A program made the translations under genes and the position numbers. The notes beneath the pieces are model-generated. The model was not told where the DNA came from, searched no databases, and saw only the letters and a program-made list of their open reading frames with translations. Below are positions 1 through 63,686 of a DNA stretch of 64,000 nucleotides, one piece after another (the stretch's first letter is position 1; every line of letters starts with the position of its first letter). This DNA comes from Caldisphaera sp. (GTDB taxonomy: Archaea; Thermoproteota; Thermoprotei_A; Sulfolobales; Acidilobaceae): assembly GCA_049971805.1 (NCBI GenBank), contig JBMFKU010000004.1:18462-82461 (forward strand), in the 5' to 3' direction.

Positions 1-585
1 ACAGACTTTTTTTCAATAATAAATTCTTTTCAGGAAGCAAAATCCATAGCAAGAAGAATGTTTATCACAAATTCATTTGATAGTTTGTTTGCCTCTCTTG
101 GTGTATCGATAGGAGGTTTTCAAAAAAATGTAGATCCATTAACATTAGGCATGAGTATTTTAGGTGGAGCACTTACTATGGGCATATTTAGTAGCTTTAT
201 AGCTGTTTATTTATCAGAAAGAACAGAAAGATTAAATGATTTAAAGAAATTGGAAAAAGAGATCATGGTTTCATTAAAAGATAGCATTTATGGGAGATCA
301 ATAAATATACTAGCATTTTATATTTCTTTATGGAGTGGTGTAGGTTCTATTTTGTTTGCTTCATTAGTTTCATTACCATATTTTGTTTTTGTCATACTTA
401 ACATAAAAGTGACACTAGCATTTTTTGTATCTATAGCTATAGCATTTTTTGAATTGGCTTATTTGGGTTATTATATGAGCAAAGTAAGTAATGAAAAGGT
501 ATTAATAAACATAATAAAAAATTTGGCTCTTGGAGTTTGTGCTATTTTATTAATATTAACTATCAAGCTATTTATTATAAAATAG
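1..585 (+). CDS. VIT1/CCC1-like (TIGR00267-type) membrane protein, probably 5'-truncated by the window edge
   Basis: Frame is open from base 1; RRMFITNSFDS motif, then A(V)YLSERTER and several TM segments. Confidence 0.6.
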   Translation, partial: TDFFSIINSFQEAKSIARRMFITNSFDSLFASLGVSIGGFQKNVDPLTLGMSILGGALTMGIFSSFIAVYLSERTERLNDLKKLEKEIMVSLKDSIYGRSINILAFYISLWSGVGSILFASLVSLPYFVFVILNIKVTLAFFVSIAIAFFELAYLGYYMSKVSNEKVLINIIKNLALGVCAILLILTIKLFIIK

Positions 586-656
586 CGGGGGGTGGATTTG
601 AACCACCGACCTCGGGGTTATGAGCCCCGCGGGCTACCAGGCTGCCCTACCCCGCT
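583..656 (-). tRNA. Initiator tRNA-Met (CAU)
   Basis: Reverse complement AGCGGGGTAGGGCAGCCTGGTAGCCCGCGGGGCTCATAACCCCGAGGTCGGTGGTTCAAATCCACCCCCCGCTA; A1-U72 pair, G-C rich anticodon stem, CAT anticodon. Confidence 0.96.
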
Positions 657-25779: not shown

Positions 25780-25851
25780 GGGCCGGTAGTTCAGCGGAAG
25801 AATGCCGCCCTCGCACGGCGGAGATCCCGGGTTCAAATCCCGGCCGGTCCA
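25780..25851 (+). tRNA. tRNA-Ala (CGC)
   Basis: GGGCCGG..., anticodon arm CCGCC-CT-CGC-AC-GGCGG, G3.U70 pair, TTCAAAT T-loop. Confidence 0.96.
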
Positions 25852-39400: not shown

Positions 39401-40558
39401 TCAGATAGAGTCTTTTAGTAAATTTATTAAAATTTTATCATCTATGTTAGCTCCAAATAATCTATTTTTTAGTCTGTCTGCGACAACAGGATTTAGAAAT
39501 GCCCTTCTAATAGCTTCTCTAAGCATATCCATGCCAAATCCATAATCGCTTAATTTCTTAGAGAATCCTAAAGATTCTTGGAAATTCTTTAATATCTTTG
39601 TTGTTTCATTGGGATCTGAGCTGGGCTTAAAATCAGGGTTAAAAATCCTTAGAAGTCTAGCAGAATCCATTGGTGAAGCTTTATGTATTAGTGGTGCCAG
39701 ATTAGGTCCAATAATGGCTAAACCACAACCATGGGGTAGCGAAGGAACTAAACCACTCATTATATTTTCCAGTGCATGTATTATATTTGTTGGTGATATA
39801 TCTATAGATACTCCTGCCATCATAGAAGCATAAAGCAAATAGTACCTGGCTTCAACATCATTCAAATTATTTATAGCTTTTGGTAAGTATTCGTATATTT
39901 GCTTTACAGCCTCTTCAGAAAATGCTTTAACCAATGGAGGGCTATTAGCTGTTGTTGTGGATTCATAAGCATGATAAAAGGCATCAAACGATGTGCATAG
40001 AACTTCTTCTTTTGGCATGGTCAAAGTATATTTAGGATCTTCAAATGCTGCTTTTGGATAGCAAACAGCGTTTCCTAGTTTATCACCTCTTTCTGTATCT
40101 GTTGTATTAGCGTATTTATTCACTTCACTACCAGTGCCATGGGTTAAGTTTACTGCAAAAACAGGAATTATTTTTTCTACCTTTCTTTTTCCATAAAGAT
40201 AATCTGTAGCTTTACCACCATTAGATGCTATGGCTGATCCCAATTTAGAAGTATCGATTATGCTTCCTCCTCCTATAGCTATTAGTGCTTCTGCCTTTGA
40301 TAATAATATTGTTTTTGCTAACTCATCAGCTTGTGATGATAACGGATTCGGTGTAATTCTATCAAATATAGTATAAGTTATATTTAATTCTTTTAATATC
40401 TTTATTACATCATCTAGTGCTCCGCTAGCTTTTGCGGAATTTTTACCAGTTACAACTATTAAATTCTTATTTCCTTTTAGATAGTTGCTTAAATTGCTTA
40501 TAGCTGAAGGTCCAAAATATATGTCATCATTACTGTATGTCCATACAAATTTTATCAT
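39401..40558 (-). CDS. Iron-containing alcohol dehydrogenase family protein
   Basis: GGGS.ID, THGTGSE, DAFYHAYE, HALE and HG.GL. Confidence 0.92.
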   Translation of the reverse strand: MIKFVWTYSNDDIYFGPSAISNLSNYLKGNKNLIVVTGKNSAKASGALDDVIKILKELNITYTIFDRITPNPLSSQADELAKTILLSKAEALIAIGGGSIIDTSKLGSAIASNGGKATDYLYGKRKVEKIIPVFAVNLTHGTGSEVNKYANTTDTERGDKLGNAVCYPKAAFEDPKYTLTMPKEEVLCTSFDAFYHAYESTTTANSPPLVKAFSEEAVKQIYEYLPKAINNLNDVEARYYLLYASMMAGVSIDISPTNIIHALENIMSGLVPSLPHGCGLAIIGPNLAPLIHKASPMDSARLLRIFNPDFKPSSDPNETTKILKNFQESLGFSKKLSDYGFGMDMLREAIRRAFLNPVVADRLKNRLFGANIDDKILINLLKDSI

Positions 40559-40781
40559 ATCTGTCTCACCTTCTCTTTTAACTTATTATTTGTTAGCGCT
40601 TATCTATATTTTTTAATAACCAGATATTATTACTTTATATTATTGTTCGATAAAGTTACCTTTATGTTTTAAATATTAAAAGAAAAATTCTGTTTATTAA
40701 TAAATTAAAAATCTATCTAAAGAGCAAAGCCAACAAAGATTTAACTTAAAAACCCTTAATACAAGATTTAGATAAAAGGGA

Positions 40782-40857
40782 GCGGCGGTAGTCTAGCCTG
40801 GATTAGGACGCTGGCCCGCCACGCCAGAGGTCCCGGGTTCAAATCCCGGCCGCCGCA
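40782..40857 (+). tRNA. tRNA-Gly (GCC), gene encodes C33
   Basis: GCGGCGG acceptor; anticodon arm CTGGC-CC-GCC-AC-GCCAG; TTCAAAT T-loop. Confidence 0.95.
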
Positions 40858-40968
40858 TTTTATTTTGAAAAAATATATAAGATATAATCTTTTAAGATGC
40901 TTTATAAGCAATGAAGAGCATTATTAAAGCTCGATAAAATATTTACAAAAAAGAACAGGGAATAGAAA

Positions 40969-41778
40969 ATGAAATGGATTAACCCAAGGATAGAATACAT
41001 AGGTGATATAGCTATAATAAAGGTTCCATTTAATGTAATATATAAAAATGAGGATATATTATCTTTAGCAGAAGATATATTAAAGAAATATAAATTTATA
41101 AAATCTGTATGGCTTGCAGCTTCACCTGTTAAAGGTGAGTTAAAAATAAGGGATTTTATTCATTTATTGGGAGAAAATAGATCAACCACGATTTATAAGG
41201 AACATAATTGTTTATTTAGATTAGATATAAAGAAGGTCTTTATAACGCCTAGATTAAGTTATGAGCATTTAAGGATAGCAAATCTTGTGAAGGAAAACGA
41301 GAGAATAGTAAATATGTTTGCTGGTGTCGGCTTATTCTCTATAATTATAGCAAAAAAATCAAAGCCAAAGATTGTTCATAGCATTGATATAAATCCTGAA
41401 GCATATAATTACATGAAAGAAAACATAAACTTAAACAAGGTTAATGATATTGTAATACCATATGTTGGTGATGCAAAAGATGTTATTGAGGAAAATTTAA
41501 TAGATTCTGCAGATAGAGTTTTAATGCCATTACCTGATTTAGCTTTGCCATATTTAAAATATGCTGTTCTTGCATTGAATAAGGAAGGATACATACATAT
41601 TTATTTGCATATAAAGGCAAATAAGTTGCAAGATCCTATAACTATATCTAACGAACAAGTTATAAATGCTCTAAATAATTTTAACATAGAATATAAACTA
41701 ATCAATTCAAAAATAGTGAGAACTGTTGGCCCAAGATTTTATCAGGTGGTTATAGATGTCTACGCAAAAAAACATTAA
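40969..41778 (+). CDS. tRNA methyltransferase Trm5a/Taw2-type (wyosine pathway), lacking the D1 domain
   Basis: IGDIAI, YKEH.C.F, MFAGVG, DINP and RVLMPLP. Confidence 0.82.
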   Translation: MKWINPRIEYIGDIAIIKVPFNVIYKNEDILSLAEDILKKYKFIKSVWLAASPVKGELKIRDFIHLLGENRSTTIYKEHNCLFRLDIKKVFITPRLSYEHLRIANLVKENERIVNMFAGVGLFSIIIAKKSKPKIVHSIDINPEAYNYMKENINLNKVNDIVIPYVGDAKDVIEENLIDSADRVLMPLPDLALPYLKYAVLALNKEGYIHIYLHIKANKLQDPITISNEQVINALNNFNIEYKLINSKIVRTVGPRFYQVVIDVYAKKH

Positions 41779-42319
41779 AGAAATTTTATTGCTAGAAAGA
41801 ATCATTGGCTATCTAGATCCATTTGCTGAAGAGTACCTTATAAAATTAAATAATAATGAAATTTCCACATCGAGCAGTTGCATGGGAAGAATAACAGTAA
41901 TTGAAGGTAAATGGCATTGGGAAAGAAATAGAGCCAGAATAGTCTTGAAATCTCATAAACCTATAACAATTTATGATTTATCAAATGTAATAGTTAGACC
42001 ATTTGATAACTTGTGGTTAAAGGTTACAGGCCCAATTATACATTTAAAGACAAATAAAATTAGCTGCGCATTTTTAATTTTAGATTCAGCAAGAAAATCA
42101 GGCTTTAAGCACAGCGGAATTTTTTCAAATTCAAATGGCTTATATACTGTTGAATTGCTAAGTGCAATTCAAATAGCCATGCCATTAAAAATAAATAATA
42201 CGTATACAATAAATCCAAGTTCATTAAATAACGTTATAGAAATTGCTAATAATGCTTTACTGGAAGGGCATAGAAGGTTAAACAAGTTGGTAGAATTAAC
42301 AAGTGAAATTAATTGTTAG
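41756..42319 (+). CDS. taw3: tRNA(Phe) wyosine methyltransferase Taw3/TYW3
   Basis: YLD, STSSSCMGRI, KSH, PIIH and SGFKHSG. Confidence 0.88.
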   Translation: MSTQKNIKEILLLERIIGYLDPFAEEYLIKLNNNEISTSSSCMGRITVIEGKWHWERNRARIVLKSHKPITIYDLSNVIVRPFDNLWLKVTGPIIHLKTNKISCAFLILDSARKSGFKHSGIFSNSNGLYTVELLSAIQIAMPLKINNTYTINPSSLNNVIEIANNALLEGHRRLNKLVELTSEINC

Positions 42320-43334
42320 ATCTTTTCTTGGACTCTACATTTCTTTTATAGGCTAATATCGGATGTTTAGCTCCGCAATCCATAGGACATAAATTTTTCT
42401 TTTTCATTACATCGCATCTGTAAGGATTTAAATTCTCCATGCCTAAAAATGAATTTGTAATTCTTTTTGATAAATTGTTTGATATTCCTAAAGAAGATTC
42501 CAAGACATTGCTTATTTCATCCTCGTCTACTCCTATAGATATTAGAAATGATATGTATAATAGTAACTTTTCATGATTTATATTACTTCCATTGTCTATT
42601 TCTTTTTTTATGGCCTTCATGCAAGGTGGAAAGCTGTTATAGTCCGTTTTTTCTCCTGTTGGTATTTTATTTTCAGCAATCTTAAGATATCTTGTTATAT
42701 TATTTCCTAATTCTTTTAATTCTTCGTTGTTTATCTCAATATTGTTTGCAAATGATTTTATTTTAGTTATTATTGCTATTTCTAAAAAATCTTTAAGTAA
42801 GCTTTCATCTAGATATACATTGCCATTCATTAAAAAGGAATTCACTAATCTAAATTTACTTTCCTGGCCATTAACTGATATTCTTAAATAGCTATCTAAT
42901 CTAACAGAATATTGCAATGTACGATATCTTACATTGCCTTGCTTTGTTCGTATCCAAGGGATTTTTATGGGCCTTTTTTCTATAATAACTCCTAATGACT
43001 TTGCTAGTGAAATTAATGTTTCTTCATCTTCATTGGCTATAAATGTGCTTGCTCTGTTTGCTTCCGCATTTGCAAATAAATTTAATGCTATTATGGAGTT
43101 TGTTGTTTTAATGCCTCCTAACGCTAAATAAAACGATAGGACTTCATCCTCAGTCGAATCTCCATTTTTTAAGGGACTAATTTTCTTAGTTATACCTTCT
43201 TCTAATCTTTTCTTAGTTATTCTTACTATCCTTTCATTTTCCATAAGAGATTCCAAGCTTATTTTATAGCCAAGATTGCTCTTAACGTATTCATCAAGCG
43301 ATATTGCAAATGGGTACTTGCTATATGTAAGCAT
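42309..43334 (-). CDS. priL: DNA primase large subunit
   Basis: KYPF N-terminus, RLVN...NG.VYL and Fe-S Cys motifs FPPCM...YRC..M....LCP..C. Confidence 0.85.
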   Translation of the reverse strand: MLTYSKYPFAISLDEYVKSNLGYKISLESLMENERIVRITKKRLEEGITKKISPLKNGDSTEDEVLSFYLALGGIKTTNSIIALNLFANAEANRASTFIANEDEETLISLAKSLGVIIEKRPIKIPWIRTKQGNVRYRTLQYSVRLDSYLRISVNGQESKFRLVNSFLMNGNVYLDESLLKDFLEIAIITKIKSFANNIEINNEELKELGNNITRYLKIAENKIPTGEKTDYNSFPPCMKAIKKEIDNGSNINHEKLLLYISFLISIGVDEDEISNVLESSLGISNNLSKRITNSFLGMENLNPYRCDVMKKKNLCPMDCGAKHPILAYKRNVESKKRSNN

Positions 43335-43436
43335 TTTTCTTCATATATAATATTTTGTTCAAGGTTTAAGAAAACTTCGGTTATTATAGTTATTTAATGA
43401 CTATAAATATTAATATAGGAAAAATTATTTATTATT

Positions 43437-44840
43437 TTGGTGAGAAAGGTGACTTCTTATAGAGATCTTTCGGAAAGAATAGCAGATTGGGCTGTTAATT
43501 TATCATATGAAAAGCTACCCAAGGAGGTTATTGAGGAAACCAAAAAAAGGATTTTAGATACATTTGGTGTAGCAATAGGCGCATTTTATGAGAAGCCTGT
43601 AAGCATAGCAAGATGGCTGGCAGAATCATCATCAAGTTCTAGAATAGCAGCAACTATTTGGGGAACAGATAGAACAGCACCTGCAGATCATGCAGATTTT
43701 GCTAATGGGTGCGCCAATAGATATTTTGATTTTATGGATACCTATTTATCAAAAGAAGCATTACATCCAAGTGATAATATACCAGCTATCATAGCTGCCG
43801 CTGAGATAGCTAAGGCTGATGGGAAAAAAGTGATTGAAGGTATTGTTGCAGCATACGAAGTTACTGCTAGATTGGCAGATGCTTATAGCGTAAGAAGTAA
43901 AGGATGGGATCATGTGGTATATATAGCAATAGCTTCTGCTGTTGGTGCAGGAAAGGTTCTTGGGTTAAATAAAGAAGGGATTTTACAAGCAATAAATTTA
44001 GCAACAGTTAATGCAACTGCTTTAAGGCAGACAAGGGCTGGAGAGCTTAGCATGTGGAAAGGATGTGCAGCAGCAAACTCGTCTAGAAATGGTCTGTTTG
44101 CAGCTATCCTGGCCATGCAGGGTATGAAGGGTCCCTCACCTATCTTTTCTGGAGAATTTGGATTCTTTAGAGTTGCTCTAAATGGAGACAAGTTTGATAT
44201 ACCAAAAATGGGTGGAGAAAATGGAGAGCCATTTAAAATTTTAGAGACGAGTATAAAATATTGGCCTGTTGAATATCATGCTATGAGCGCTGTTGATGCA
44301 GCACTTAAAATAAAGGAAAAAGCTGGAAGCTTGACACCAAAGGACATTAAGAAAGTTGATGTAAAGACTTTCCAAGTTTCATATAATATAATTGTAAAGG
44401 ATCCAGAAAAATGGGATCCGAAGACAAGAGAGACTGCAGATCATAGCCTACCATATATAATAGCTGTTGCACTTTTAGATGGGAATGTATGGTTAACAAC
44501 ATTTCATGAAGAAAGATACTTAGCTAAAGATGTTAGAGAAGTACTTTCAAAGATGAAAGTAGAGGTAGATCCCGAGCATGATAAATTCTATCCTACTGGG
44601 ATTAAGAATACAATAAAGGTTGAGTTAAGCGATGGAAGAGTATTCGAAGAAAGCAGTACATACCCACCAGGTCATTTTAAAAATCCATTAAGCAGGGAAG
44701 GTGTTGTTAATAAATTCAAGAAGGTTACTGAAGGCAAGCTGTATGAAAATAATGTAAATAAGCTAATAGATATTGTATGGAATCTAGAAAATTGTATGAA
44801 TATAAGTAAAGCTTTGGGTCTACTCAAAATTAAATCGTAA
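43437..44840 (+). CDS. prpD: MmgE/PrpD family 2-methylcitrate dehydratase
   Basis: RYFDFMDTY, HPSD, LSMWKG, WPVEYH and RETADHSLPY. Confidence 0.9.
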   Translation: MVRKVTSYRDLSERIADWAVNLSYEKLPKEVIEETKKRILDTFGVAIGAFYEKPVSIARWLAESSSSSRIAATIWGTDRTAPADHADFANGCANRYFDFMDTYLSKEALHPSDNIPAIIAAAEIAKADGKKVIEGIVAAYEVTARLADAYSVRSKGWDHVVYIAIASAVGAGKVLGLNKEGILQAINLATVNATALRQTRAGELSMWKGCAAANSSRNGLFAAILAMQGMKGPSPIFSGEFGFFRVALNGDKFDIPKMGGENGEPFKILETSIKYWPVEYHAMSAVDAALKIKEKAGSLTPKDIKKVDVKTFQVSYNIIVKDPEKWDPKTRETADHSLPYIIAVALLDGNVWLTTFHEERYLAKDVREVLSKMKVEVDPEHDKFYPTGIKNTIKVELSDGRVFEESSTYPPGHFKNPLSREGVVNKFKKVTEGKLYENNVNKLIDIVWNLENCMNISKALGLLKIKS

Positions 44841-45062
44841 TAAATATTATTGTTTTTATTTTAATAGCTTTTTATATCAAAAATTTTTCTAGCAAAATGT
44901 AAAATCTTGTTTTTAATTATATAAAAAAGAATTATAAGAATTAAGTAACTTAAATATTTATAGAGAGGATTTCTGATTACTTTTTTAAATGAAAGGTTGT
45001 TATTTAATGGATGAAAACTTCCTATTTAAAGATAATTTGTTCTTTATGAAATAGAAATTAGA

Positions 45063-46268
45063 TTATTTACCTTTCTTACCTTGTTTTTTACCTCCTTTTG
45101 TAACTGTAGTTTCTATAGGTTTTGGTTTTAGTAAAAACCCTCCTCCAAGAACTCCTATTACAATACCTAATATAAATAATCCTATAGAGACTTCGCCGTT
45201 TTTATGCAGTCTGGTGGAATATTGACCTAATTGATAGCTAGTTTCATTATATCTAACCTGCCAATAACTTACTAGACCTTGTAATTCCCCTAGCCTAGTT
45301 GTTAAGTTATTAATAGTATTGTTTAGTGATGTAATCTTGCTTATATATGAGTTTATGTTGCTTTGATAATTTATAAGGTTTGTGATATTTTGATATATAT
45401 TAGGATCTATTTGAGATACAATATCTAATGAATTTGTTAGACTAATAAGTTCTGGATTAAATGGTATTCCGTATAAATTAAAGGCAAGGCTGTATTGGTT
45501 TGGTTTGTTCAATGTAATATTTTGTATATCAACAATTAAATAAGAAACCCCTGTTTCTTGAGAAGTTCCATTTAAAAAGCCTTTAAAAAATTGTAAAGAT
45601 GAAAATGTTGGTGTAACAAGATTTAGACCTACTATTTCATTATTTAAGGAATTTTCTGAACCTATTAATGTAACCTTACTTATGTTGTTTATAATAGTTG
45701 AACTATTTGAATTAATTGTATAACTTAATATACTATTTGAAATATATTGGCTGACAAAAGTCCAATTAGTTTTTGGTAAATTAACTCCTAAGCCTAAATA
45801 TAAATCCTTTATAAAGGTTTCATTCTCATTAGAAATAAGGCTTAATTTATATGTTAAGTATGGGTAATAGGAGCTTGCAGTTATATAGACTTTAATAGAA
45901 ATATTGTTTGTTAAATTCATAGGTGTTAACATTATTTCTGCAAAATTTGAACTCTTTTCTATCAAATATGCTTCCCATCGTTTATTATATAATTCCCCAG
46001 GTAATGTTGAATTAATAGATAATATTAAAGAGGGAACTTGATTGCTATTGCTGACCAATTGAACTTTACCATTTTGGGTGTTGATTAACCAACTTGATAT
46101 GCTACCTCCTTTCAAAAGGTTTAATGTTATATTATAATAGTTATTTGTGATGGTAACAGTTGTGTTTGTTACAGTAACGCTTAATGAGGGAATTGATTGT
46201 GCATATGAAATGCTTCCCATTAAAGGGATTATAATAATTGCCAGCAGTATCAATGCTCGTATTTTCAT
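45063..46268 (-). CDS. Membrane-anchored surface glycoprotein, SlaB-like architecture
   Basis: Signal peptide, N/S/T-rich beta region, coiled coil, C-terminal TM and Lys-rich tail. Confidence 0.55.
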   Translation of the reverse strand: MKIRALILLAIIIIPLMGSISYAQSIPSLSVTVTNTTVTITNNYYNITLNLLKGGSISSWLINTQNGKVQLVSNSNQVPSLILSINSTLPGELYNKRWEAYLIEKSSNFAEIMLTPMNLTNNISIKVYITASSYYPYLTYKLSLISNENETFIKDLYLGLGVNLPKTNWTFVSQYISNSILSYTINSNSSTIINNISKVTLIGSENSLNNEIVGLNLVTPTFSSLQFFKGFLNGTSQETGVSYLIVDIQNITLNKPNQYSLAFNLYGIPFNPELISLTNSLDIVSQIDPNIYQNITNLINYQSNINSYISKITSLNNTINNLTTRLGELQGLVSYWQVRYNETSYQLGQYSTRLHKNGEVSIGLFILGIVIGVLGGGFLLKPKPIETTVTKGGKKQGKKGK

Positions 46269-46322
46269 ACTTTCTGCCTCCTGTCTTAGAAATTTTTAAT
46301 TACTAATTTAAGCTTAATTGAA

Positions 46323-46748
46323 TTGGACAGTGAAGAAAACATGTGCAATAATATATTTAAAGCTTCAGTATTTAGCGGAAAAAAAGAAGGAGAGTTCTTC
46401 GTTAGTATTTATGCAAAAAATTTTGAGATTGCTTTAGGTTTTATACCATATCCGGGAACACTTAATGCAAAATTATTAAGTAATTTTGAAGAGTTTGATC
46501 AATGCATTCTTAAAACAAAAAGCATTGTTGTAGATCCACCGAAAATACCTGGTATGAAATTAGGTAAGGTGATCGCATATCCAATATTTCTATTTAATTC
46601 AATAAAGGCATACGTTGTTAGACCAGAGATCACAATATATAGAAAAGACATTGTTGAAATTATTTCAGATAAGAAATTGAGAGACGAGCTTAATTTAGTG
46701 GATGGATCGATAATTGATATAAGCCTGCAAGAGGAAGAACTCCTTTAG
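46323..46748 (+). CDS. ribK: CTP-dependent riboflavin kinase (no HTH)
   Basis: VFSG..EG, LGF.PYPGTLN and EIIS..KLRD.L.L.DG. Confidence 0.88.
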   Translation: MDSEENMCNNIFKASVFSGKKEGEFFVSIYAKNFEIALGFIPYPGTLNAKLLSNFEEFDQCILKTKSIVVDPPKIPGMKLGKVIAYPIFLFNSIKAYVVRPEITIYRKDIVEIISDKKLRDELNLVDGSIIDISLQEEELL

Positions 46749-46816
46749 GTATAAGAGATATAAATACGAATGGCTTAAAGAGAATATTTTAATACTTTCT
46801 TTAGAGAATATAATAT

Positions 46817-48061
46817 ATGGTGAAAAATTTGGATTTTGATTTATCGGTAGATGAGAAGCTGTTTAAAGAATCCGTTCATGAATTCTTGTCTAAAACATTA
46901 AATCCTCATTGGATAAAAATGGATAGTGAAAAACGAATTCCAACAGAAATTATAAATAAAATGGGAGAGCAAGGTTTGTTTGCAATTCCAGTTCCGGAAG
47001 AATATGGAGGCCAAGGAGGTAATTTTGTCTTGGCCGCCTTAGCTGTTGAAGAAGTTGCATATAATGATCCAGCTGTTGCAACTGCTGTATTTACATTGCT
47101 AAATAATAGTTGGCCTTTATTGTTATATCAATTCGGTAAAGAAGAGGCTAAACAAGAAATACTACCATTAGTCGGCAAAGGAAGAGGGTTTTTTGGTATT
47201 GCCTCTACAGAGTCAAGCGGAGGAAGCGATGTAGCAGGAGAAAGGACTTTAGCTAAAAAAGAAGGAAACTTGTATAAATTAAATGGTGAAAAAATTTATA
47301 TTAGCGGAGTAAGAGAAGCTATAGAGCAATTAGAATTAGGAAGCTGGTTTTTAATAGCAAGAACAGGTAAGCCTGAGGATAAGCATAGAGGTTTGACCTC
47401 TTTTGCATTTATAGGCAATAAAAATGGGAAAAAAGCCCAAGGATTGGATTATTCTATTTTAAACACTATTGGTAGGCATGCAATCTCTACGGGTATGTTG
47501 AGATTTAATGATACTCCTGTTGAGCAAAAATATATAATAGGAGATGAAAATAAAGGCTATTATTTGGCCATGCAAGGCTTTTCTATGGCAAGAGTTTTGG
47601 TAAGCGCTGCAAACATAGGAGCGGCTCAATGGGCATTAGAACAAGCAGTTCAATATTCAAGGGAAAGGAGAATGTTTGGGGATAAACCAATAGCATCATT
47701 TCAAGGAGTAAGTTTTCCCATCGCTGAAATAGCTGCTAAATTAGAATCTACCAGATTATTGATTTATAAATCTGCTCAACTTGCTGATAAAATATTTATT
47801 AAAAAAGAACCTGGCTTCAGGCCTCAAGATTTAAATTATTGGGCGTCAGCATCTAAAATTATGGCTATAGAAACAGCTTTTGCCTCTATAGAAACTGCCA
47901 TGAAAACGCTTGGAGGATATTCATATACAGAAGAGGCAAATGTATTTAGGAATTTGCTAGGGATATTGTCTTATCTAGTAGGTGCTGAAGGTTCTCAAAA
48001 CATAATGAGATACATTGTTGCAAGAGAAGTAATAGGAAGGGATTATGTAAAGGGAGAATAA
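46817..48061 (+). CDS. Acyl-CoA dehydrogenase
   Basis: PEEYGG, TES.GGSD, LNGEKIYIS, R.MFG..IASFQ and GG..Y...EG. Confidence 0.93.
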   Translation: MVKNLDFDLSVDEKLFKESVHEFLSKTLNPHWIKMDSEKRIPTEIINKMGEQGLFAIPVPEEYGGQGGNFVLAALAVEEVAYNDPAVATAVFTLLNNSWPLLLYQFGKEEAKQEILPLVGKGRGFFGIASTESSGGSDVAGERTLAKKEGNLYKLNGEKIYISGVREAIEQLELGSWFLIARTGKPEDKHRGLTSFAFIGNKNGKKAQGLDYSILNTIGRHAISTGMLRFNDTPVEQKYIIGDENKGYYLAMQGFSMARVLVSAANIGAAQWALEQAVQYSRERRMFGDKPIASFQGVSFPIAEIAAKLESTRLLIYKSAQLADKIFIKKEPGFRPQDLNYWASASKIMAIETAFASIETAMKTLGGYSYTEEANVFRNLLGILSYLVGAEGSQNIMRYIVAREVIGRDYVKGE

Positions 48062-48065
48062 ATAC

Positions 48066-48431
48066 TTATTTGCAATAAGATTTCGTTAATTCATCTATAA
48101 TATCCTTGCATTTTTCTATTTTTTCTTTTGCATATGTTGATCCATGCTCAGATGCTTCTTTAAGCCCTTCTAATGCTTTGCATATCAATTGGTTCAAAGA
48201 GATTTTAAATAACTTTATATCATTATCTTTAATTTTTAATTGGGTTGTTTGAAAAAATGGTAGATAATCATTTATAGAATATGACCTTATGAAAATTCCA
48301 TCCGAATTCAATATCAATTTTTTATTGCTTCCTATATTATGCGATACTTCATATTCCCCTGCTGGTGGTGCTAAGCATATAGCTAGCTCAATATCTGATT
48401 TTTTATCACATGGGCATTTCACACTTGACAC
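48066..48431 (-). CDS. Hypothetical Cys-containing protein
   Basis: 121 aa ORF with six Cys. Confidence 0.6.
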   Translation of the reverse strand: MSSVKCPCDKKSDIELAICLAPPAGEYEVSHNIGSNKKLILNSDGIFIRSYSINDYLPFFQTTQLKIKDNDIKLFKISLNQLICKALEGLKEASEHGSTYAKEKIEKCKDIIDELTKSYCK

Positions 48432-48751
48432 CTATTTTTTTGTTTATATTTTAAGGTTTATTAAAATGGAGTTAATAAGAATGGTTTAATCAAATCGAAG
48501 CCATTTTATAAATATTTATAAAAATAAATAATTAATATAGTTTAACTTTTTATACTTCATTCATATTATTGATCTTGGAATTAAATAGTATATGGCCTGC
48601 TCAGCTCATATATGAGTAAACTTTAGATTAAAAAACCAGAAATGATAACGATCATTTTTCTTATATTCGTCGATTGTCTATTCTTATGTAGGCAAATGAC
48701 GATATATTTTTATAGGGAGAAAACAAAAGTTATGGGCGAAGGTGTTAGTAT

Positions 48752-49807
48752 TTGGTTAGTCCAAAAGCAGGCATTCATGGCTGGGGAGTTTATGTACCAA
48801 TCTATAGATTGCCATTATTTGAAATAGCAAGAGTATGGGGATGGCATCAGGACCAATATAAAGGGTTGGCTGTTGATGAAAAATCGGTTGCTGGTCCTGA
48901 CGAAGATTCTGTAACTATGGGATATGAAGCTGCAAGCAATGCAATACAAAGAGCAAAAATACCATCTAATAAAATTGGCGCAATATTTTTTGGGACTGAA
49001 TCAAAGCCGTATGCGGTAAAGCCAAGTGCAACAATAATAGGAGAAGCCTTGGGCATAACTCCATATACAATGGCAAGTGATCTTGAGTTTGCTTGCAGAG
49101 CTGCGAGTGAAGGTATGAGATCATTAATAGGAATGGTAAGTTCCAATTTGATAGAATATGGTCTAGTTATTGGTAGCGATACAGCACAATCTAATCCAGG
49201 GGATGTTCTTGAATTCACTGCCTCTAGCGGTGCTGCCGCTTTTATAATTGGACCTACAAAGAATGCTGCCGCAGTTATAGAAGACTCGACCAGTTTTATT
49301 ACAGACACGCCAGATTTTTGGAGAAGAGCTTCACAGCCTTATCCCTTGCATGGCGAAGGATTCACTGGGGAGCCTGCATATTTCTACCATATTGAAAATT
49401 CTGTGAAAATATTGCTTGAAAGAAATGGATTGACGCCAAAAGACTTTGATTATGTTATATTTCATCAGCCAAACGGTAAATTCCCTGTTAAAGTAGGTAC
49501 GGATCTAGGATTTAATATCGATCAAATCAAGGAAGGATTAGTGACGCCTATGATAGGTAATACTTATAATGGGAGTGCTTTAATTGGTTTAGCAAAGGTA
49601 TTGGATAAGGCAAAGGCAGGACAAAGAATATTAATGGCACCATTTGGTAGTGGGGCTGGAAGCGATGCCTATTATATTACAACAACTGATATAGTTGAAG
49701 AAAGAAAAGGCTTGGCACCTATGGTAGAAGACTATTTAAATAGAAAGGTTTTGATAGACTATGCAACATATGCGAAGAGTAGGTCTATTATTCATGTAAT
49801 TAAATAA
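48752..49807 (+). CDS. Hydroxymethylglutaryl-CoA synthase (archaeal)
   Basis: DED, GTESKPYAVKP, catalytic LEFAC, FHQPN and GNTY. Confidence 0.95.
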   Translation: MVSPKAGIHGWGVYVPIYRLPLFEIARVWGWHQDQYKGLAVDEKSVAGPDEDSVTMGYEAASNAIQRAKIPSNKIGAIFFGTESKPYAVKPSATIIGEALGITPYTMASDLEFACRAASEGMRSLIGMVSSNLIEYGLVIGSDTAQSNPGDVLEFTASSGAAAFIIGPTKNAAAVIEDSTSFITDTPDFWRRASQPYPLHGEGFTGEPAYFYHIENSVKILLERNGLTPKDFDYVIFHQPNGKFPVKVGTDLGFNIDQIKEGLVTPMIGNTYNGSALIGLAKVLDKAKAGQRILMAPFGSGAGSDAYYITTTDIVEERKGLAPMVEDYLNRKVLIDYATYAKSRSIIHVIK

Positions 49808-49819
49808 GGTGATATAATA

Positions 49820-50962
49820 ATGGTAGTATACATTGAAGGAGTGGGAATGACAAAAATTGATAGACATTACGACCTCAGCTTAAAAGATTTAGCAGCGACG
49901 GCTGCTTTTAAGGCTATAGATCAGTCTGGAGGTATTGATGGTATAGATTTCTTGGTTTTTTCAAACAGTTTAGCTCCTTTACAAGATAGCCAGCTTGATA
50001 TAGCAGGTTATATTTCGACATCTTTGGGACTTAAAGGTATAAGGGCATTAAATATAGAAGCGGGAGAGGCTAGCGGTTTAGCTGCTATATCAGTTGCCAA
50101 GTCTATTTTAGAATCAAACCAGGCAGATAAGGTACTTGTTGTAGGGGGTGAAAAATTAACAGAATTTGTAACTTCAAAGACATACAGGCATTTACAAATG
50201 GTCTATGATTCTGATACAAGGTCTTTTTATAACTCAGGATTCGCTGGAGACGCTGCATTAATAATGAGATTATATATGGATACATATAATGTAGATAGAG
50301 AAATAATGTCTTACTGGCCAGCATTAATGCATTCTCATGCAAAAGAAAATCCATATGCAATGTTGAATTTTGCAATTAAACCAGAAAAAGTTTCAAAATC
50401 CCAAGTGCTGGCTGATCCTATTACATTATTAGATGCCTATCCCTTGGGAGATGGTGCTGCCGCATTGGTTTTATCAACCAAAGATATTGTAAAATCACCC
50501 TTAGCAAAAATTACTGCTATTGAGTCATCAACTGGTTATGGATCTTTCGAGCTTTCAGAAGACCCCCTAGTCTTGGATTCATTAATAGAGGCTTATAGAA
50601 GACTTTCTTCTATAGTAGATACTTCAAACATTGATTTTATTGAGATACATGACTCGTTCACGATTACAGCCCTTATGATACTTGAATCAATAGGATTGGC
50701 TAATCGTGGCAAAGCGGCCGAACTAGTGGCTCAGGGATATTTTAGTGCTGGAGGTAAAGGACCTATGGCTAATCCAAGCGGTGGATTAAAAGCAAGGGGG
50801 CATCCATTAGGAGCAACTGGTATATATCAGGTTGCTGAGTCTGCTCTTCAAGTTTCAAACAGTTTTCCAGGAGTTAAAGTAGCAAATGCTAGGAAGGGAC
50901 TTGTAGTTTCATTAAATGGATTTGGTTCTAATGCTTATGTATCGTTAATAGAGAGGGTGTAA
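49820..50962 (+). CDS. Acetoacetyl-CoA thiolase-family protein lacking the catalytic Cys
   Basis: Thiolase motifs GGEK, NPYA, DGAAA, EIHD.F and NPSGGLKARGHPLGATG; EAGEASG in place of EAACASG. Confidence 0.88.
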   Translation: MVVYIEGVGMTKIDRHYDLSLKDLAATAAFKAIDQSGGIDGIDFLVFSNSLAPLQDSQLDIAGYISTSLGLKGIRALNIEAGEASGLAAISVAKSILESNQADKVLVVGGEKLTEFVTSKTYRHLQMVYDSDTRSFYNSGFAGDAALIMRLYMDTYNVDREIMSYWPALMHSHAKENPYAMLNFAIKPEKVSKSQVLADPITLLDAYPLGDGAAALVLSTKDIVKSPLAKITAIESSTGYGSFELSEDPLVLDSLIEAYRRLSSIVDTSNIDFIEIHDSFTITALMILESIGLANRGKAAELVAQGYFSAGGKGPMANPSGGLKARGHPLGATGIYQVAESALQVSNSFPGVKVANARKGLVVSLNGFGSNAYVSLIERV

Positions 50963-50965
50963 ATA

Positions 50966-51397
50966 ATGTCAATGGATTTATCTATTTCGAGGTTTTGGAG
51001 AAAAAAGAGTATAATTTATAAACTATATGGTGCTAAATGCAAGTCTTGCGGCAGGGTTCATTACCCACCAAAAAATGCATGCCCATATTGCGGAAGTAGA
51101 GATCTAGAGCTTGTGGAATTACCGAAAAAAGGAAAGCTATTATCATTTTCTACTGTATATGCGGTTCCTGATGGTGCTAGGTTGCAGTCTCCAGTCTACA
51201 TTGGATTTATAGATCTTGGTCTAACTAGGGTCGTTGCAGAGTTAACAGATGTAGTCAACTCAAATTCATTAAAAAAAGATATGGAAGTAGAGGCTGTTTT
51301 AAGAAAATCACAAGAAGATAGAGATGCTGGTTTAATATATTATGTACTAAAGTTCAGACCATCTATGGGTGCAAAAATAGATGAGCGAAAGTATTGA
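50966..51397 (+). CDS. DUF35 Zn-ribbon/OB-fold scaffold protein
   Basis: CKSCG..YPP...CPYCG and G.IYY..KFRP; follows the thiolase. Confidence 0.92.
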   Translation: MSMDLSISRFWRKKSIIYKLYGAKCKSCGRVHYPPKNACPYCGSRDLELVELPKKGKLLSFSTVYAVPDGARLQSPVYIGFIDLGLTRVVAELTDVVNSNSLKKDMEVEAVLRKSQEDRDAGLIYYVLKFRPSMGAKIDERKY

Positions 51398-52616
51398 TGA
51401 ATTAATTGAAAAGCTGCTAAAAGGAGAGATAAGTATAAGCAAATTAGATCAAATATTGGATGCAAATCTGGCTGCATTGGCTAGAAGACTATTTTTAGAA
51501 AAGAAATTTAATGTAAAATTAACAGCAATTGCTTCTACTCTATTAGATTTTAAGGATATAGTTAGTCATAATATAGAAAATCCGATAGGTGCTGTTCAAA
51601 TACCATTGGGTGTTGTTGGTCCGTTAAAAATTGATGGAGATTTTGCTAAAGGAGAATATTATGTACCAATGGCAACAACCGAAGGTGCATTGGTAGCAGG
51701 GGTTAATAGAGGAGTTAAGTTGCTTACATTAAGCGGAGGAGCAAAGGCTAAGGTAATTTACGATGGTATGGCAAGAGCACCATTAATATGGACTCCCAGT
51801 GTTAATGATGCAGTAAATCTTTCAGATTGGTTAAAAAATCATATTAATGAGATTAAGGAATCGGTAAAGCATGTGACAAAGCATGGGGAATTAAAGGAAT
51901 TACAAATTTTTATTGTGGGCAATATGGTATGGCCAAGATTTGTTTTTTCAACAGGTGATGCTATGGGAATGAACATGGCAACTATAGCTAGCGACAATAT
52001 TTGTAAATATATAGAAAATAACTATAAAGGAGATTATAGGTGTATCAGTGTAAGTGGTAATTTATGTGTAGATAAAAAGCCGAATTATTTAAATAAAATT
52101 TTAGGAAGAGGTAAATACGTAATTGCAGAGGCTGTTATAAAGGAAGAGGTTCTAAAAAAAGTTATGAGAACAACTTCTTATGATATTGATTATATAAATA
52201 AATCAAAGAATTTATTGGGAAATGCAGTTGCCGGTAGTTTGAGTTATAATGCGCATGTTGCTAATATAGTAGCAGCAATCTTTGCTGCTACTGGCCAAGA
52301 TATAGCACAAGTGGTTGAAAGTAGTATGAGCTATGTTTGGACTGAAACCAGAGGTCAAGATCTCTATATATCAACTACTTTAACTAGCTTGGAAGTAGGC
52401 ACTGTAGGAGGAGGTACATGGCTCCCAACGCAAAAGGAAGCCTTGGATTTATTGGGGGTCTCGGGAGGAGGAAACCCGTCAGGAATAAATTCATTGAAGT
52501 TGGCTGAAATAATTGCATCAATGGCCTTAGCTGGAGAATTGAATTTATTGGCAGCTCAAGCAACCGGAGAATTAGCATCTGCACATGAAAAACTTGGAAG
52601 AGGTGGCAAAAAGTAG
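51381..52616 (+). CDS. hmgA: HMG-CoA reductase (class I, NADPH)
   Basis: NIENPIG, PMATTEGAL, DAMGMN, GQD.AQ and GTVGGGT. Confidence 0.96.
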   Translation: MSESIDELIEKLLKGEISISKLDQILDANLAALARRLFLEKKFNVKLTAIASTLLDFKDIVSHNIENPIGAVQIPLGVVGPLKIDGDFAKGEYYVPMATTEGALVAGVNRGVKLLTLSGGAKAKVIYDGMARAPLIWTPSVNDAVNLSDWLKNHINEIKESVKHVTKHGELKELQIFIVGNMVWPRFVFSTGDAMGMNMATIASDNICKYIENNYKGDYRCISVSGNLCVDKKPNYLNKILGRGKYVIAEAVIKEEVLKKVMRTTSYDIDYINKSKNLLGNAVAGSLSYNAHVANIVAAIFAATGQDIAQVVESSMSYVWTETRGQDLYISTTLTSLEVGTVGGGTWLPTQKEALDLLGVSGGGNPSGINSLKLAEIIASMALAGELNLLAAQATGELASAHEKLGRGGKK

Positions 52617-52771
52617 GAAATTGATTTTTCTATTTTTACAAAATTTATAGACAATAAAAATTCTAAATATGAATTAAAAAAGTATAATAATGTAAAAATT
52701 AAAAATCTTTTTAATAATTTTGCAAACAGTATAATAAATAGAGATTTAACCCTATAGATCTTGAAAAACTC

Positions 52772-53341
52772 TTGTGCTTTAAAGAGTGGGGGTCAATAAA
52801 GTTGGTAAGGAATGAGATATTTAATTTTAAAAATAGAGCAATCGTAGAAACAGAAGATATCATATTGCCAAATAATAACAATCTAAAGTTATTTAGATTA
52901 AGATTTCTCCCTTTCACTGTATCAATTTTGCCTTTATTTACTAAGCAAAAATCTGTTGTTTTAATAAAACAATACAGACCTGCAATAAATAAGTATATAA
53001 TTGAAGTTCCCGCTGGTGTAGCTGAAAAAAATGAAATACCAGAAGAAGTAGCTAAAAGAGAGTTAAAAGAGGAAACCGGATTGTTGGCTAAAAGTTTAAT
53101 TCAAGCCGCTAAAGGATACGTATCTCCTGGATATTCAACGGAATATATGTATTATTATGTAGCATTAGACCCAGATATAGGCTTAGCTTCTCCAGAAAGC
53201 ACGGAAATAATAGAACCTATTAAGCTGAAACTAGATGAAGCAATAAAATTAATAGAAAGAGGAGAAATAGAGGATTCAAAAACTATATTGTTGCTTTTTT
53301 ATGCTAAAAATAACATTAGCACTTTAAGCCAAGCGATCTAG
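52772..53341 (+). CDS. Nudix hydrolase (ADP-ribose pyrophosphatase-like)
   Basis: QYRP, PAG....E...A.RELKEETG, SPG and DSKT; start may be TTG at 52802. Confidence 0.9.
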   Translation: MCFKEWGSIKLVRNEIFNFKNRAIVETEDIILPNNNNLKLFRLRFLPFTVSILPLFTKQKSVVLIKQYRPAINKYIIEVPAGVAEKNEIPEEVAKRELKEETGLLAKSLIQAAKGYVSPGYSTEYMYYYVALDPDIGLASPESTEIIEPIKLKLDEAIKLIERGEIEDSKTILLLFYAKNNISTLSQAI

Positions 53342-53840
53342 CACAAATAGATGTGCTATTAACTACCTTTCTAAGAACTTCATCTATTTTATTTGAAGCA
53401 TTTATTATTATAGAACTATTATTAGAAATTTGTTTATCTTCTAGAGGGACTTCAAATTTGTTATTTTCAACGCTTATTAGCAATTTTATGCTATCAGAAT
53501 AAATTTTTATATTTTTTGTACCAACTTCAAAGTAATTTTGAGAAATAGTTGCCCCAAAAGAATTATTTCCTATTTTCCAAATTTTTTTGTTTTCTGAATT
53601 TAACGTATACGTATTTCCACAACTGCTTTTGCAAATGTTTATATTATCCGTTTTAGTACATAAATTTTTGTTATTTCCAATGCATTCAACAAGCCTTGAT
53701 ATATCGTTTATACGATTTACTAGATCTATTATAGATATTAATGATGTAGCAGCAGATGCGCTAGCACCACCTTTTTTTGACATAGATTTTATGAGAGATT
53801 CTATTTTCGACATATATTGCATTGATGACATTTCTTTCAC
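53316..53840 (-). CDS. Hypothetical protein
   Basis: 174 aa ORF with six Cys and no recognised motif. Confidence 0.6.
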   Translation of the reverse strand: MKEMSSMQYMSKIESLIKSMSKKGGASASAATSLISIIDLVNRINDISRLVECIGNNKNLCTKTDNINICKSSCGNTYTLNSENKKIWKIGNNSFGATISQNYFEVGTKNIKIYSDSIKLLISVENNKFEVPLEDKQISNNSSIIINASNKIDEVLRKVVNSTSICARSLGLKC

Positions 53841-54039
53841 CTTTGATCCAGTTAATTTTGTATGAATTAGATTTTTAAACTCTAATGTTAATCATCGAAT
53901 TTTATTCTTTATTTATTATAAGATAAACCATAAACTTATTCTATGAAAATATTATTTAAAAAATATTACAAATTCAGTAATATAATATATTAACTTTTTT
54001 AATTTCAATAAGTTTTGAAGAACTGAAAGGTAATTAGCT

Positions 54040-55566
54040 ATGGACTATGTCTCAATAGTAGATTTGGGGTCTCAATATGCACATCTAATACATAAGAGAC
54101 TTTCGTATTTAAACATAGATTCTATTTTAACAACAGAATTCGATGAAAATGTATATAGGGCAAAGGCCGTAATAGTATCAGGTAGTCCGATGAGTGCATT
54201 AAAAGATAATGTAAAAGATATAGAAATTAATATAAGAAATATAGTTAATAGTGGAAAGCCTTTTTTAGGTATATGCTTTGGTCATCAAATGCTTTCCATT
54301 GCTTATGGAGGTAAAATGGTATCTGATAGAGCTGAATATGGAAGAACTAAGATAAATATAGTTTCAAAAAATAGCATTTTAGAGGGTCTAGACAACAATG
54401 AAGAGGTATGGATGAGTCATAGCGATTGTGTTATAGATCCAGGGAATGGAATTACTAATGCTATATCAGAGAGGGGATGTATTTCTGCTATTGAAATACC
54501 AAATAAAATTGCATATGGAGTTCAGTTTCATCCTGAAGTAACTCATACTAGGAAAGGATTACAGATATTTAAAAATTTCTTAGAAATAGCTGGATTTAAG
54601 TATAAGGAAATATCTATTTATGAAAAAGTATCTAATTATTATGCATATATTTTAGATGAAATAAAATCAAATTACCATGGTGGTAAGATAATTTCTGCTG
54701 TGAGTGGTGGGATAGACTCTACAGTTTCAACCTATATAGTAATGAAGGCCGTTGGATACAAAAATATCATACCAGTATTAATAGATCATGGATTATTTAG
54801 AGAAAACGAGGTAGACGAAGTCATATCGTATTTAAGAAAGGTAGGTATAGATCCAATATATATCAATGCTAAACAGGATTTTATTTCTAAGCTAGAAGGA
54901 ATTTTAAGTTGTGAAGAAAAGAGAAAAATCATAGGAGAACTTTTTGCACAAAAGCTTTTTGATATAATTAAGCAAGAAAATGCTGATTATTTAATACAAG
55001 GTACGGCATATCCAGATGTTATAGAAAGTGGGAAAACAAAGCACTCGCAAAAAATAAAGTCACATCACAATGTTGGAGGACTTCCCGAATGGTTTAATAT
55101 TAAAATTATTGAACCATTAAGAGGATTATATAAAGATGAAATCAGAGAATTAGGTAAAATTATTGGTCTTCCTGAAGAGATTTTAAAAAGACAGCCATTC
55201 CCTGGACCGGGATTAGCAGTTAGAATTATAGGTAATTTTTCAAGAGAAAAATTAGAAGCAGTTAGAAAAGCTGACAAAATATTGGCCGATATTCTTAAAA
55301 GAGAAGGAATTTATTCGCATTTATGGCAATCTATTGCAACTATATCAGACTCATGGGTGGGAGTAAAAGGGGATGAAAGAGAAGAAGGTTATATTATAAA
55401 CATAAGACTGATTTTAAGTGAAGATGGAATGACTGCCGACTACTATTTGCCACAAAAAAATTTGTTGGATGAAATATCAAACAGAATAACTAATGAAGTT
55501 AAAAATGTAAGTGCTGTGGGTTTTATAACATCTACTAAACCCCCTGCTACCATAGAGCCTTGTTAA
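54040..55566 (+). CDS. guaA: GMP synthase (single-chain GATase + ATP-PPase)
   Basis: DLGSQY, GICFGHQ, QFHPE, SGGIDS, KSHHNVGG and PFPGPGL. Confidence 0.96.
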   Translation: MDYVSIVDLGSQYAHLIHKRLSYLNIDSILTTEFDENVYRAKAVIVSGSPMSALKDNVKDIEINIRNIVNSGKPFLGICFGHQMLSIAYGGKMVSDRAEYGRTKINIVSKNSILEGLDNNEEVWMSHSDCVIDPGNGITNAISERGCISAIEIPNKIAYGVQFHPEVTHTRKGLQIFKNFLEIAGFKYKEISIYEKVSNYYAYILDEIKSNYHGGKIISAVSGGIDSTVSTYIVMKAVGYKNIIPVLIDHGLFRENEVDEVISYLRKVGIDPIYINAKQDFISKLEGILSCEEKRKIIGELFAQKLFDIIKQENADYLIQGTAYPDVIESGKTKHSQKIKSHHNVGGLPEWFNIKIIEPLRGLYKDEIRELGKIIGLPEEILKRQPFPGPGLAVRIIGNFSREKLEAVRKADKILADILKREGIYSHLWQSIATISDSWVGVKGDEREEGYIINIRLILSEDGMTADYYLPQKNLLDEISNRITNEVKNVSAVGFITSTKPPATIEPC

Positions 55567-55567
55567 A

Positions 55568-57400: not shown

Positions 57401-57490
57401 TTCACTCCTTATTATTTGTAATATTAAGTAAAAATCGAGGTAAATATATTTTTCTTTTATAATAATATTTTTGTTTTGGAATGTAAAAAA

Positions 57491-58870: not shown

Positions 58871-58959
58871 TTAATCTCACTACTTAAAAAATTAGCATAG
58901 AAAAATTAAAAAACCTTAATATGAATCAGTTTCATAATTACAATCCATATGTTAAAAAT

Positions 58960-59283
58960 TTAAGCCTTTAGTAATAAACCACCACCAGAATCCTTTACAA
59001 TTTTTATCAATTCAGAGGTTATCTTTGATATTTTTTCTGTATCACCTTCAAGTCTTATATTTATATTTGCCTTAGATGTAGATTGTATAGTTATGTTTTC
59101 TTCGAATATTATCATAGATTTAATAAAAATATCTTTGCATGATGCAATTATCCATGACGGGGCGTTTGTAGAAACACATTCAAGGTTATCTATAAATTTC
59201 TTAATCGAATTAAAGCCGCTTATTAATAATGCAGGGTCTTCAAATATAACTTCAAGCTCAGCATAGGAATTCATTTTTATCAC
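58960..59283 (-). CDS. Hypothetical protein
   Basis: 107 aa ORF with typical composition and no recognised motif. Confidence 0.6.
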   Translation of the reverse strand: MIKMNSYAELEVIFEDPALLISGFNSIKKFIDNLECVSTNAPSWIIASCKDIFIKSMIIFEENITIQSTSKANINIRLEGDTEKISKITSELIKIVKDSGGGLLLKA

Positions 59284-59387
59284 ATTTTTAATCTTATTCT
59301 GGAATAAATTTAAATACTTTGTTATTGTAATCTAAAATGATCTGAAAATATTTTGTTTAGTGAAGAGCTATATTAGAGGCGAAAAAG

Positions 59388-60221: not shown

Positions 60222-60304
60222 TATAGGTTTATTTGTTATAAATTGCTTGATAAAGTAAAGCCAAATCTAGTCCTTTAATAAGAGAAGAAGTTAGTTAAAG
60301 AAAA

Positions 60305-60393
60305 TAGCCGGGCGGGGATTCGAACCCCGGTCACGGGGGTTCCTCTGAAATTCATCCAAGGCCCCGCATCCTTGGCCGCTAGACGACCCGGCT
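60305..60393 (-). tRNA. tRNA-Gln (UUG) with a 16-nt canonical 37/38 intron (60340-60355); gene encodes C33
   Basis: AGCCGGG acceptor; arm CGGGG-CC-TTG-G[ATGAATTTCAGAGGAA]C-CCCCG; BHB with CCUU/GAGG central helix. Confidence 0.92.
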
Positions 60394-60429
60394 AATTTAA
60401 AATAAAAAGATAAGAGAGATTAAAAAATT

Positions 60430-63572: not shown

Positions 63573-63686
<114 letters not shown>

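Follow-up and report, generated by a model that had tools for sequence, protein, structure and literature searches.

The window analysed here is a stretch of 64,000 nucleotides (G000:C4:18462-82461) from the genome G000, a metagenome assembly of 1,524,224 bp (1.52 Mb) in 66 contigs with 31.2% GC and an estimated completeness of 96.6%. It harbours a tRNA-Gly(GCC) gene that encodes C instead of U at position 33, a second tRNA gene with the same substitution, and three tRNA genes with U33 that served for comparison. U33 is among the most conserved residues in biology, and its conservation is usually explained by the turn of the anticodon loop and by contacts with the ribosome. The features on which the analysis rests are the following.

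40782..40857, + strand: tRNA-Gly(GCC) gene, 76 nt, without intron and without encoded CCA (ARAGORN, Rfam RF00005, sequence)
40817, + strand: C33 of tRNA-Gly(GCC), with C32 at 40816 (sequence and alignment to the tRNA model)
40818..40820, + strand: anticodon GCC of tRNA-Gly (sequence, ARAGORN)
40858..40866, + strand: T-run (TTTTATTTT) immediately 3' of A73 and, as judged from the letters, a probable site of transcription termination
60305..60393, - strand: tRNA-Gln(UUG), the second C33 tRNA of the window (Infernal 44.3 bits, manual parse)
60340-60355, - strand: 16-nt intron of tRNA-Gln(UUG), after position 37
60360, - strand: C33 of tRNA-Gln(UUG), opposite which, in the pre-tRNA, lies a G of the last helix strand of the intron
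583..656, - strand: tRNA-Met(CAU), initiator-type, U33, for comparison (ARAGORN, Infernal/Rfam)
25780..25851, + strand: tRNA-Ala(CGC), U33, for comparison (ARAGORN, Infernal/Rfam)
63576..63685, - strand: tRNA-Lys(CUU), U33, with an insertion 3' of the anticodon arm, for comparison (Infernal/Rfam, manual parse)

Aligned with Infernal to the tRNA family RF00005, the tRNA-Gly(GCC) gene scored 61.8 bits against a gathering score of 29 and covered the model at full length (positions 1-71). Its anticodon arm consists of a 5-bp stem (CUGGC/GCCAG) and a 7-nt loop, C32 C33 G34 C35 C36 A37 C38, and the remaining cloverleaf is ordinary. The gene thus has what RF00005 asks of a tRNA, namely an above-threshold, full-length cloverleaf with a Gly anticodon in a loop of 7 nt, and the U33 that it lacks, owing to the C at 40817, is a conserved residue but no membership criterion. 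The original prediction, made from the letters alone, had described a C33 at 40817 in a CC-GCC-AC loop within a normal cloverleaf, the same change in a Gln tRNA of the window, and U33 in the iMet, Ala and Lys tRNAs; the first of these was confirmed by sequence, ARAGORN and Infernal/RF00005, the Gln tRNA proved to be tRNA-Gln(UUG), and alignment to RF00005 bore out U33 in the remaining three. Immediately downstream of the Gly gene lie two genes on the same strand, one for a TRM5/TYW2-family methyltransferase (40969-41778, PF02475, E 3e-44) and one for a TYW3 methyltransferase (41756-42319, PF02676, E 2e-27), both of which presumably act on position 37 of tRNA in the m1G/wyosine pathway; upstream, on the opposite strand, is a gene for an iron-type alcohol dehydrogenase (39401-40558).

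A metagenome assembly of 66 contigs and incomplete by estimate, in which neither ARAGORN nor Infernal found a Gly-UCC or a Ser-CGA gene, could in principle contain a C that is an assembly or sequencing error, or a dead or redundant tRNA gene beside a U33 gene that does the decoding. We therefore drew on Logan contigs from three DNA runs of one hot-spring study, which were compared over 40700-60450. The contigs of the three runs showed no T at 40817, with summed depths of about 80-140 in the probable source run, and the sole variant listed inside the gene, 40818 G>C, corresponds to the near-identical Gly-CCC paralog. In addition, a 641-nt contig from another sample covers 40700-41114 and has C at 40817. 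Four further genomes of the genus, each at species level, have the identical C33 Gly-GCC gene; one of them, the closed congener G005, consists of a single contig and has no other gene with this anticodon. Neither ARAGORN nor Infernal revealed a further Gly-GCC gene in G000, and a U33 pattern gave 0 matches there. Thus, neither a T at 40817 nor a second Gly-GCC gene with U33, the two findings that the original prediction had named as speaking against it, turned up in the runs and genomes searched. Together with the full-length tRNA score of the gene, these results leave an artefact a negligible chance, and we conclude that C33 in tRNA-Gly(GCC) is a real, inherited feature of tRNA genes and no error.

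The extent of the substitution was determined by tabulating position 33 over whole genomes. Infernal identified 44 tRNA genes in G000, 13 of them with introns that were parsed by eye, and ARAGORN returned the same set plus one extra call with a 980-nt 'intron' that had no Infernal support; this call, a tRNA-Ile at G000:C6:812-1886 whose 3' part resembles a tRNA T arm and acceptor end, is probably false. Seven of the 44 genes encode C33, those for Gly-GCC, Gly-CCC, Leu-CAG, Leu-UAG, Leu-UAA, Arg-UCU and Gln-UUG, and C32 accompanies C33 in all seven. The sister isoacceptors Leu-CAA, Leu-GAG, Arg-CCU and Gln-CUG of the same genome have U33. Hence the prediction held for C33 itself and fell short on its scale, since seven tRNAs of the genome, not two, carry it. 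In the closed G005, from which all 46 tRNA genes were retrieved, C33 was again found in seven, namely Gly-GCC, Gly-CCC, Leu-UAG, Leu-UAA, Arg-UCU, Arg-CCU and Gln-UUG, and as each anticodon occurs once in G005, no U33 copy stands behind its C33 tRNAs. C33 therefore occurs in the sole gene for its anticodon and is conserved among related species, as befits a natural variant; tRNA-Cys has U33 in both genomes. The demand on these tRNAs was estimated from 706 long ORFs of G000 (293,474 codons), in which the cognate codons of the seven sum to 42,766, that is 14.6% of codons. TTA makes up 50% of the Leu codons in these ORFs, AGA 68% of the Arg codons, CAA 77% of the Gln codons, and GGT and GGC together 45% of the Gly codons. 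We conclude that the C33 tRNAs are working tRNAs in high demand, including those for the main Leu, Arg and Gln codons.

Comparison of seven genomes of the genus (G000-G006) separated the relevant isoacceptors into those with C33 throughout, those in which C and U alternate, and those with U33 throughout:

Arg-UCU: C33 in 7/7, U33 in none
Leu-UAG: C33 in 7/7, U33 in none
Gln-UUG: C33 in 7/7, U33 in none
Gly-CCC: C33 in 6/6 retrieved, U33 in none
Leu-UAA: C33 in 6/7, U33 in G006
Gly-GCC: C33 in 5/7, U33 in G001 and G004
Leu-CAG: C33 in 4/7, U33 in G002, G005 and G006
Arg-CCU: C33 in 4/7, U33 in G000, G001 and G004
Leu-CAA: C33 in none, U33 in 7/7
Gln-CUG: C33 in none, U33 in 7/7
Leu-GAG: C33 in none, U33 in 6/6 retrieved
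Gly-UCC: C33 in none, U33 in all 3 genomes where it was retrieved

Judged by sequence divergence, the genus is old: around three tRNA loci, the flanking sequences share 84-92% identity within each of three species pairs and 66-80% between pairs or with G000, and the TrmJ homologs of G001, G002 and G005 share 62-63% identity with that of G000. A C not under selection should be lost to T over time in a genome of 31% GC, and retention of C33 in 7/7 species across such a deep divergence argues, within the scope of a few related genomes, that C33 is held by selection in Arg-UCU, Leu-UAG and Gln-UUG. In other tRNAs the residue changed between C and U within species pairs (Leu-CAG in G002/G003 and Leu-UAA in G005/G006), so either pyrimidine would appear acceptable there. 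Position 33 is the sole difference between the C33 and U33 Gly-GCC genes of the genus, and the differences among its three Gly isoacceptors are almost confined to positions 33, 34 and 38. Position 32 likewise varies between species, as tRNA-Arg(CCG) has A32 in G000 (C3:52721-52797, loop AU-CCG-GA) and C32 in G005 (C1:284693-284767). The U33 Gly-UCC gene of G003 is present in two identical copies on contigs C67 and C77 (loci L148 and L149), which may reflect a duplication or an assembly split.

The intron of tRNA-Gln(UUG) provided another view of C33. The Gln-UUG introns of the genus vary in sequence, and all 7 end with (G/A)AGG followed by a three-base bulge; in each of these genes the (G/A)AGG strand can pair with C32 C33 U34 U35. 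In Gln-CUG, the corresponding intron strand is GGAG, which can pair with C32 U33 C34 U35 in 7/7 genes. The intron base opposite position 33 is accordingly G in all seven Gln-UUG genes, which have C33, and A in all seven Gln-CUG genes, which have U33. Such pairing fits a bulge-helix-bulge splice site in its geometry. As far as pairing potential goes, this shows a Gln-UUG precursor built around C33, and it says nothing on the fate of the residue after splicing.

Among 41 relatives searched, we considered the best-matching locus in 30; it was Gly-GCC in 28, with C33 in five, all from this genus, and U33 in 23, which comprise two congeners and 21 genomes of other genera. Of 201 genomes of the order, 64 contained a match to a 22-letter pattern for the C33 Gly arm, and the reversed control of this pattern gave 0 matches; a 13-letter Gly pattern had been dropped as noisy, because it also hit coding DNA and a conserved part of 16S rRNA. 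By family, genomes with a C33 Gly arm were as follows.

f10: 25/26 genomes, several of them single-contig
f1 (the window's family, G000 not counted): 9/27
f3: 9/27
f5: 6/26
f8: 4/8
f13: 5/26
f7, f9 and f11: none with the 22-letter pattern

All 22-letter matches were Gly-CCC or Gly-UCC save four Gly-GCC, all from this genus, to which C33 Gly-GCC was confined in the order scan. The C33 Leu arm was detected in 12 of the 201 genomes, that is in 5/5 sampled of this genus and 7/7 of its sister genus, where C33 is found in Leu-UAA and Leu-CAA, and the C33 Arg-UCU/CCU arm in 6/201 (five of this genus and one of the sister genus); these two scans had no U33 control, and the context that they used fitted every one of 58 Leu arms and 36 Arg arms, gathered among the 41 relatives in 13 families. 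Throughout the phylum, the C33 Gly pattern matched 19 of 301 genomes, 18 of them within the order. Outside the order this pattern is insensitive, with the U33 form in 17/258 genomes and the C33 form in 1, and since the U33 control matches so few genomes there, we make no claim beyond the order. In summary, C33 in this genus is partly fixed and partly variable between species, in an order where C33 Gly-CCC and Gly-UCC are common.

As the original prediction had put it, such a lineage either tolerates C33 or restores U33 by an unrecognised deaminase. A precedent for the latter is Methanopyrus kandleri, in which C8 of tRNAs is edited to U8 by CDAT8, a cytidine deaminase fused to a THUMP domain. 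As in that organism, many tRNA genes of one archaeon here encode C at a near-universal U (7/44 in G000 and 7/46 in G005); unlike in the CDAT8 system, however, no intact deaminase-fold gene was found in G000, and its single THUMP match is a 401-aa protein without deaminase match, which we take to resemble Pus10. The sole PF00383 match in G000 (C39:96-335, locus L031) is interrupted by a TAA stop and has CVQR in place of the CAER catalytic motif of cytidine deaminases; to judge from these lesions it is a decayed cdd-type gene, a pseudogene. Within the genus, this gene is intact in G002 and G006 and interrupted in G000 and G003, and G001, G004 and the closed G005, in which several C33 tRNAs are present, gave no PF00383 match at a threshold as loose as E<=10; the cdd-type gene appears to be in the process of loss. 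At E<=0.01, PF00383 matched in 24 of the 41 relatives, and the cdd-like gene, where present, codes for a stand-alone protein of about 140 aa. We observed no co-distribution of deaminase and C33 across these 41 genomes, as many have the gene without C33 Gly arms and several show the reverse. PF14437 gave no match in 5 genomes (0/5), and a zinc-motif regular expression run over 3,234 six-frame ORFs of G000 retrieved nothing convincing. The pseudogene, the absences, the lack of co-distribution and the null results with PF14437 and the zinc motif make a deaminase of known fold behind C33 unlikely on present gene content. This search covered two cytidine-deaminase-fold Pfam families and one zinc-motif expression, so that a divergent enzyme or one of another fold would be missed by it, and an editing enzyme not of the cytidine-deaminase fold may convert C to U. 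Deamination of C33 to U33 after transcription by an unrecognised enzyme would render the C of the gene invisible to the ribosome, and it would suit the sharing of the change by several tRNAs, the free interchange of C and U alleles in some of them, as expected of a change that is silent at the gene level, the harm done by U33C in other systems tested (PMC3664417, PMC11096365, PMC8887486), and the C32 common to all C33 tRNAs, which could be a recognition element. Still, were U alone to matter in the product, it would be difficult to see why an AT-rich genome should have held on to C for so long, and the C33 of Gln-UUG is matched by an intron G. Weighing these points with the gene content, we regard editing as improbable. 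Of the two routes that had been predicted, tolerance is thus the favoured one, because the C33 genes are single-copy, read major codons and are kept in diverged congeners and, for Gly-CCC and Gly-UCC, in many families, whereas the deaminase found no support in gene content, with neither an intact nor a co-distributed gene nor a THUMP fusion.

A cytidine that persists at position 33 could also be chemically modified, in the base or the ribose, such that the mark reinstates the function of U33 in the turn or substitutes for it. Thermophilic archaeal tRNAs are described as heavily modified (PMC7668247), and the shared C32-C33 dinucleotide could serve as a recognition site. However, modification at position 33 is said hardly ever to occur (PMC11096365), and the known effect of C33 on an anticodon-loop enzyme points the other way, since in vitro Sulfolobus acidocaldarius TrmJ no longer formed Cm32 on a U33C substrate, though the E. 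coli enzyme did (PMC4105751); we therefore hold a compensating mark to be very improbable. The TrmJ homolog of G000, a protein of 241 aa encoded on contig C17, is closest to the S. acidocaldarius enzyme (PDB 4cnf, E 3e-35), scores 178 bits against NF041077, below the cut-off of 350, and is conserved in 5/5 relatives tested. Since U33C kills the activity of the S. acidocaldarius enzyme and G000 has its homolog, it is a reasonable inference that the C32-C33 tRNAs escape Cm32. The t6A enzymes of yeast and E. coli were reported to be blocked by C33, whereas those of human and nematode, whose initiator tRNAs naturally have C33, were not blocked (PMC8887486). It follows that the t6A machinery of this lineage would either accept C33 or leave Arg-UCU unmodified. 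Further effects of the substitution are on record in other organisms: U33C abolished tRNA-triggered acetyl-CoA hydrolysis by human Elongator as well as suppression by a yeast suppressor tRNA (PMC11096365), and a U33C allele of SUP70, the yeast tRNA-Gln(CUG) gene, gave a phenotype that its authors read as poorer decoding (PMC3664417). Given this harm elsewhere, tolerance in the present lineage would need a lineage-specific adaptation. A role of C33 in escape from nucleases found no support in one example, that of yeast gamma-toxin, which cleaves a stem-loop with C33 no less well than the wild-type one (PMC2275089).

In view of the effect of U33C on human Elongator, we also considered that loss of Elp3 might have freed U34 tRNAs for C33, and rejected it as a requirement, since 9 of 10 genomes with C33 Gly-UCC have Elp3 (5/5 in family f13 and 4/5 in f10) and most Elp3-less genera of the window's family are also without C33 tRNAs. 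In this comparison, Elp3 (TIGR01211) scored above the cut-off in 0/25 genomes of family f1 and in 9/16 genomes of other families, where the nine matches reached about 650-690 bits, a pattern that points to family f1 as a whole lacking the wobble-uridine modification pathway.

Taken together, the genes, their copy number, their conservation and codon load and the failure of any deaminase gene searched for to track the trait make it likely that C33 stays unedited in the mature tRNAs and that these work in translation. The best reading of the comparison is that C33 is partly kept by selection, being fixed in some tRNAs and alternating with U between species in others. For this genus and its sister, this would mean that a defined set of isoacceptors for Gly, Leu, Arg and Gln, all with C32, takes either pyrimidine at position 33. 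As to how the loop copes, the anticodon turn may form without the N3-H contact of U33, aided by the G+C-rich stems of a thermophile. The main consequence of C33 would lie in altered recognition by enzymes that read position 33, for which Cm32 formation by a TrmJ-type enzyme is the clearest candidate, and the t6A37 machinery would face the alternative set out above for Arg-UCU. A bolder version, which we put forward tentatively and consider rather unlikely, is that this clade decodes without need for U33 and maintains C33 as an identity mark that hides chosen tRNAs, those for the main Leu, Arg and Gln codons included, from U33-reading enzymes, that is from Cm32 formation by TrmJ and possibly from others; on this view, the modification state would be written into the tRNA gene.

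Natural tRNAs lacking U33 have been described before, and what is found here is the same substitution in seven elongators at once, among them the tRNAs of main codons. Candida tRNA-Ser(CAG) has G33, which is tied to codon reassignment. Like the tRNAs described here, it is a natural elongator without U33 that is used in translation; unlike them, it has a purine at this position, is a single tRNA and goes with a reassignment, and nothing in our data suggests reassignment. That position 33 affects translation is credited in PMC3664417 to Santos et al. 1996. The cytoplasmic initiator tRNA-Met of animals (metazoans) and plants carries C33 and functions; the C33 encoded by its gene stays in the functional tRNA, as is likely in the present case, and position 33 switches modification enzymes (PMC8887486). 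There, however, the residue concerns one tRNA that binds to the P site, whereas here it concerns seven A-site elongators that read about 15% of codons. Another case is the tRNA-Cys(GCA) of Sulfolobales, an archaeal elongator with gene-encoded C33 from apparently the same broad lineage, to which PMC7668247 devotes one sentence, its authors having been unable to isolate the tRNA. In contrast, tRNA-Cys has U33 in G000 and G005, and C33 occurs here in Gly, Leu, Arg and Gln tRNAs at once. Beyond that sentence we found no paper on C33 in archaeal elongators in the library searched, and earlier tabulations may exist.

This hot-spring archaeon is a natural test case for why U33 is conserved. Mutational tests conflate two roles of U33, one in the turn and on the ribosome and the other in recognition by modification enzymes, and the clade offers natural material to separate the two, as sister species have tRNAs that differ solely at position 33. 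Further assets are a genome that places about 15% of its decoding on C33 tRNAs and a closed genome within the genus. If C33 survives into the mature tRNAs, elongators do not need U33 as absolutely as textbooks hold, and the way in which the lineage compensates would be worth asking about; if the mature tRNAs have U33 instead, archaea possess a new type of tRNA editing enzyme that is still to be discovered.

Several tRNA genes of G000 also carry insertions at unusual places. The tRNA-Lys(CUU) gene of the window (63576-63685, - strand) and the tRNA-Lys(UUU) gene (G000:C7:7327-7436) share an insertion of about 37 nt located 3' of the anticodon arm, away from the canonical 37/38 site, and other insertion sites in the genome are the anticodon stem (Trp), the D arm (Thr-UGU) and between positions 32 and 33 (Pro-CGG).
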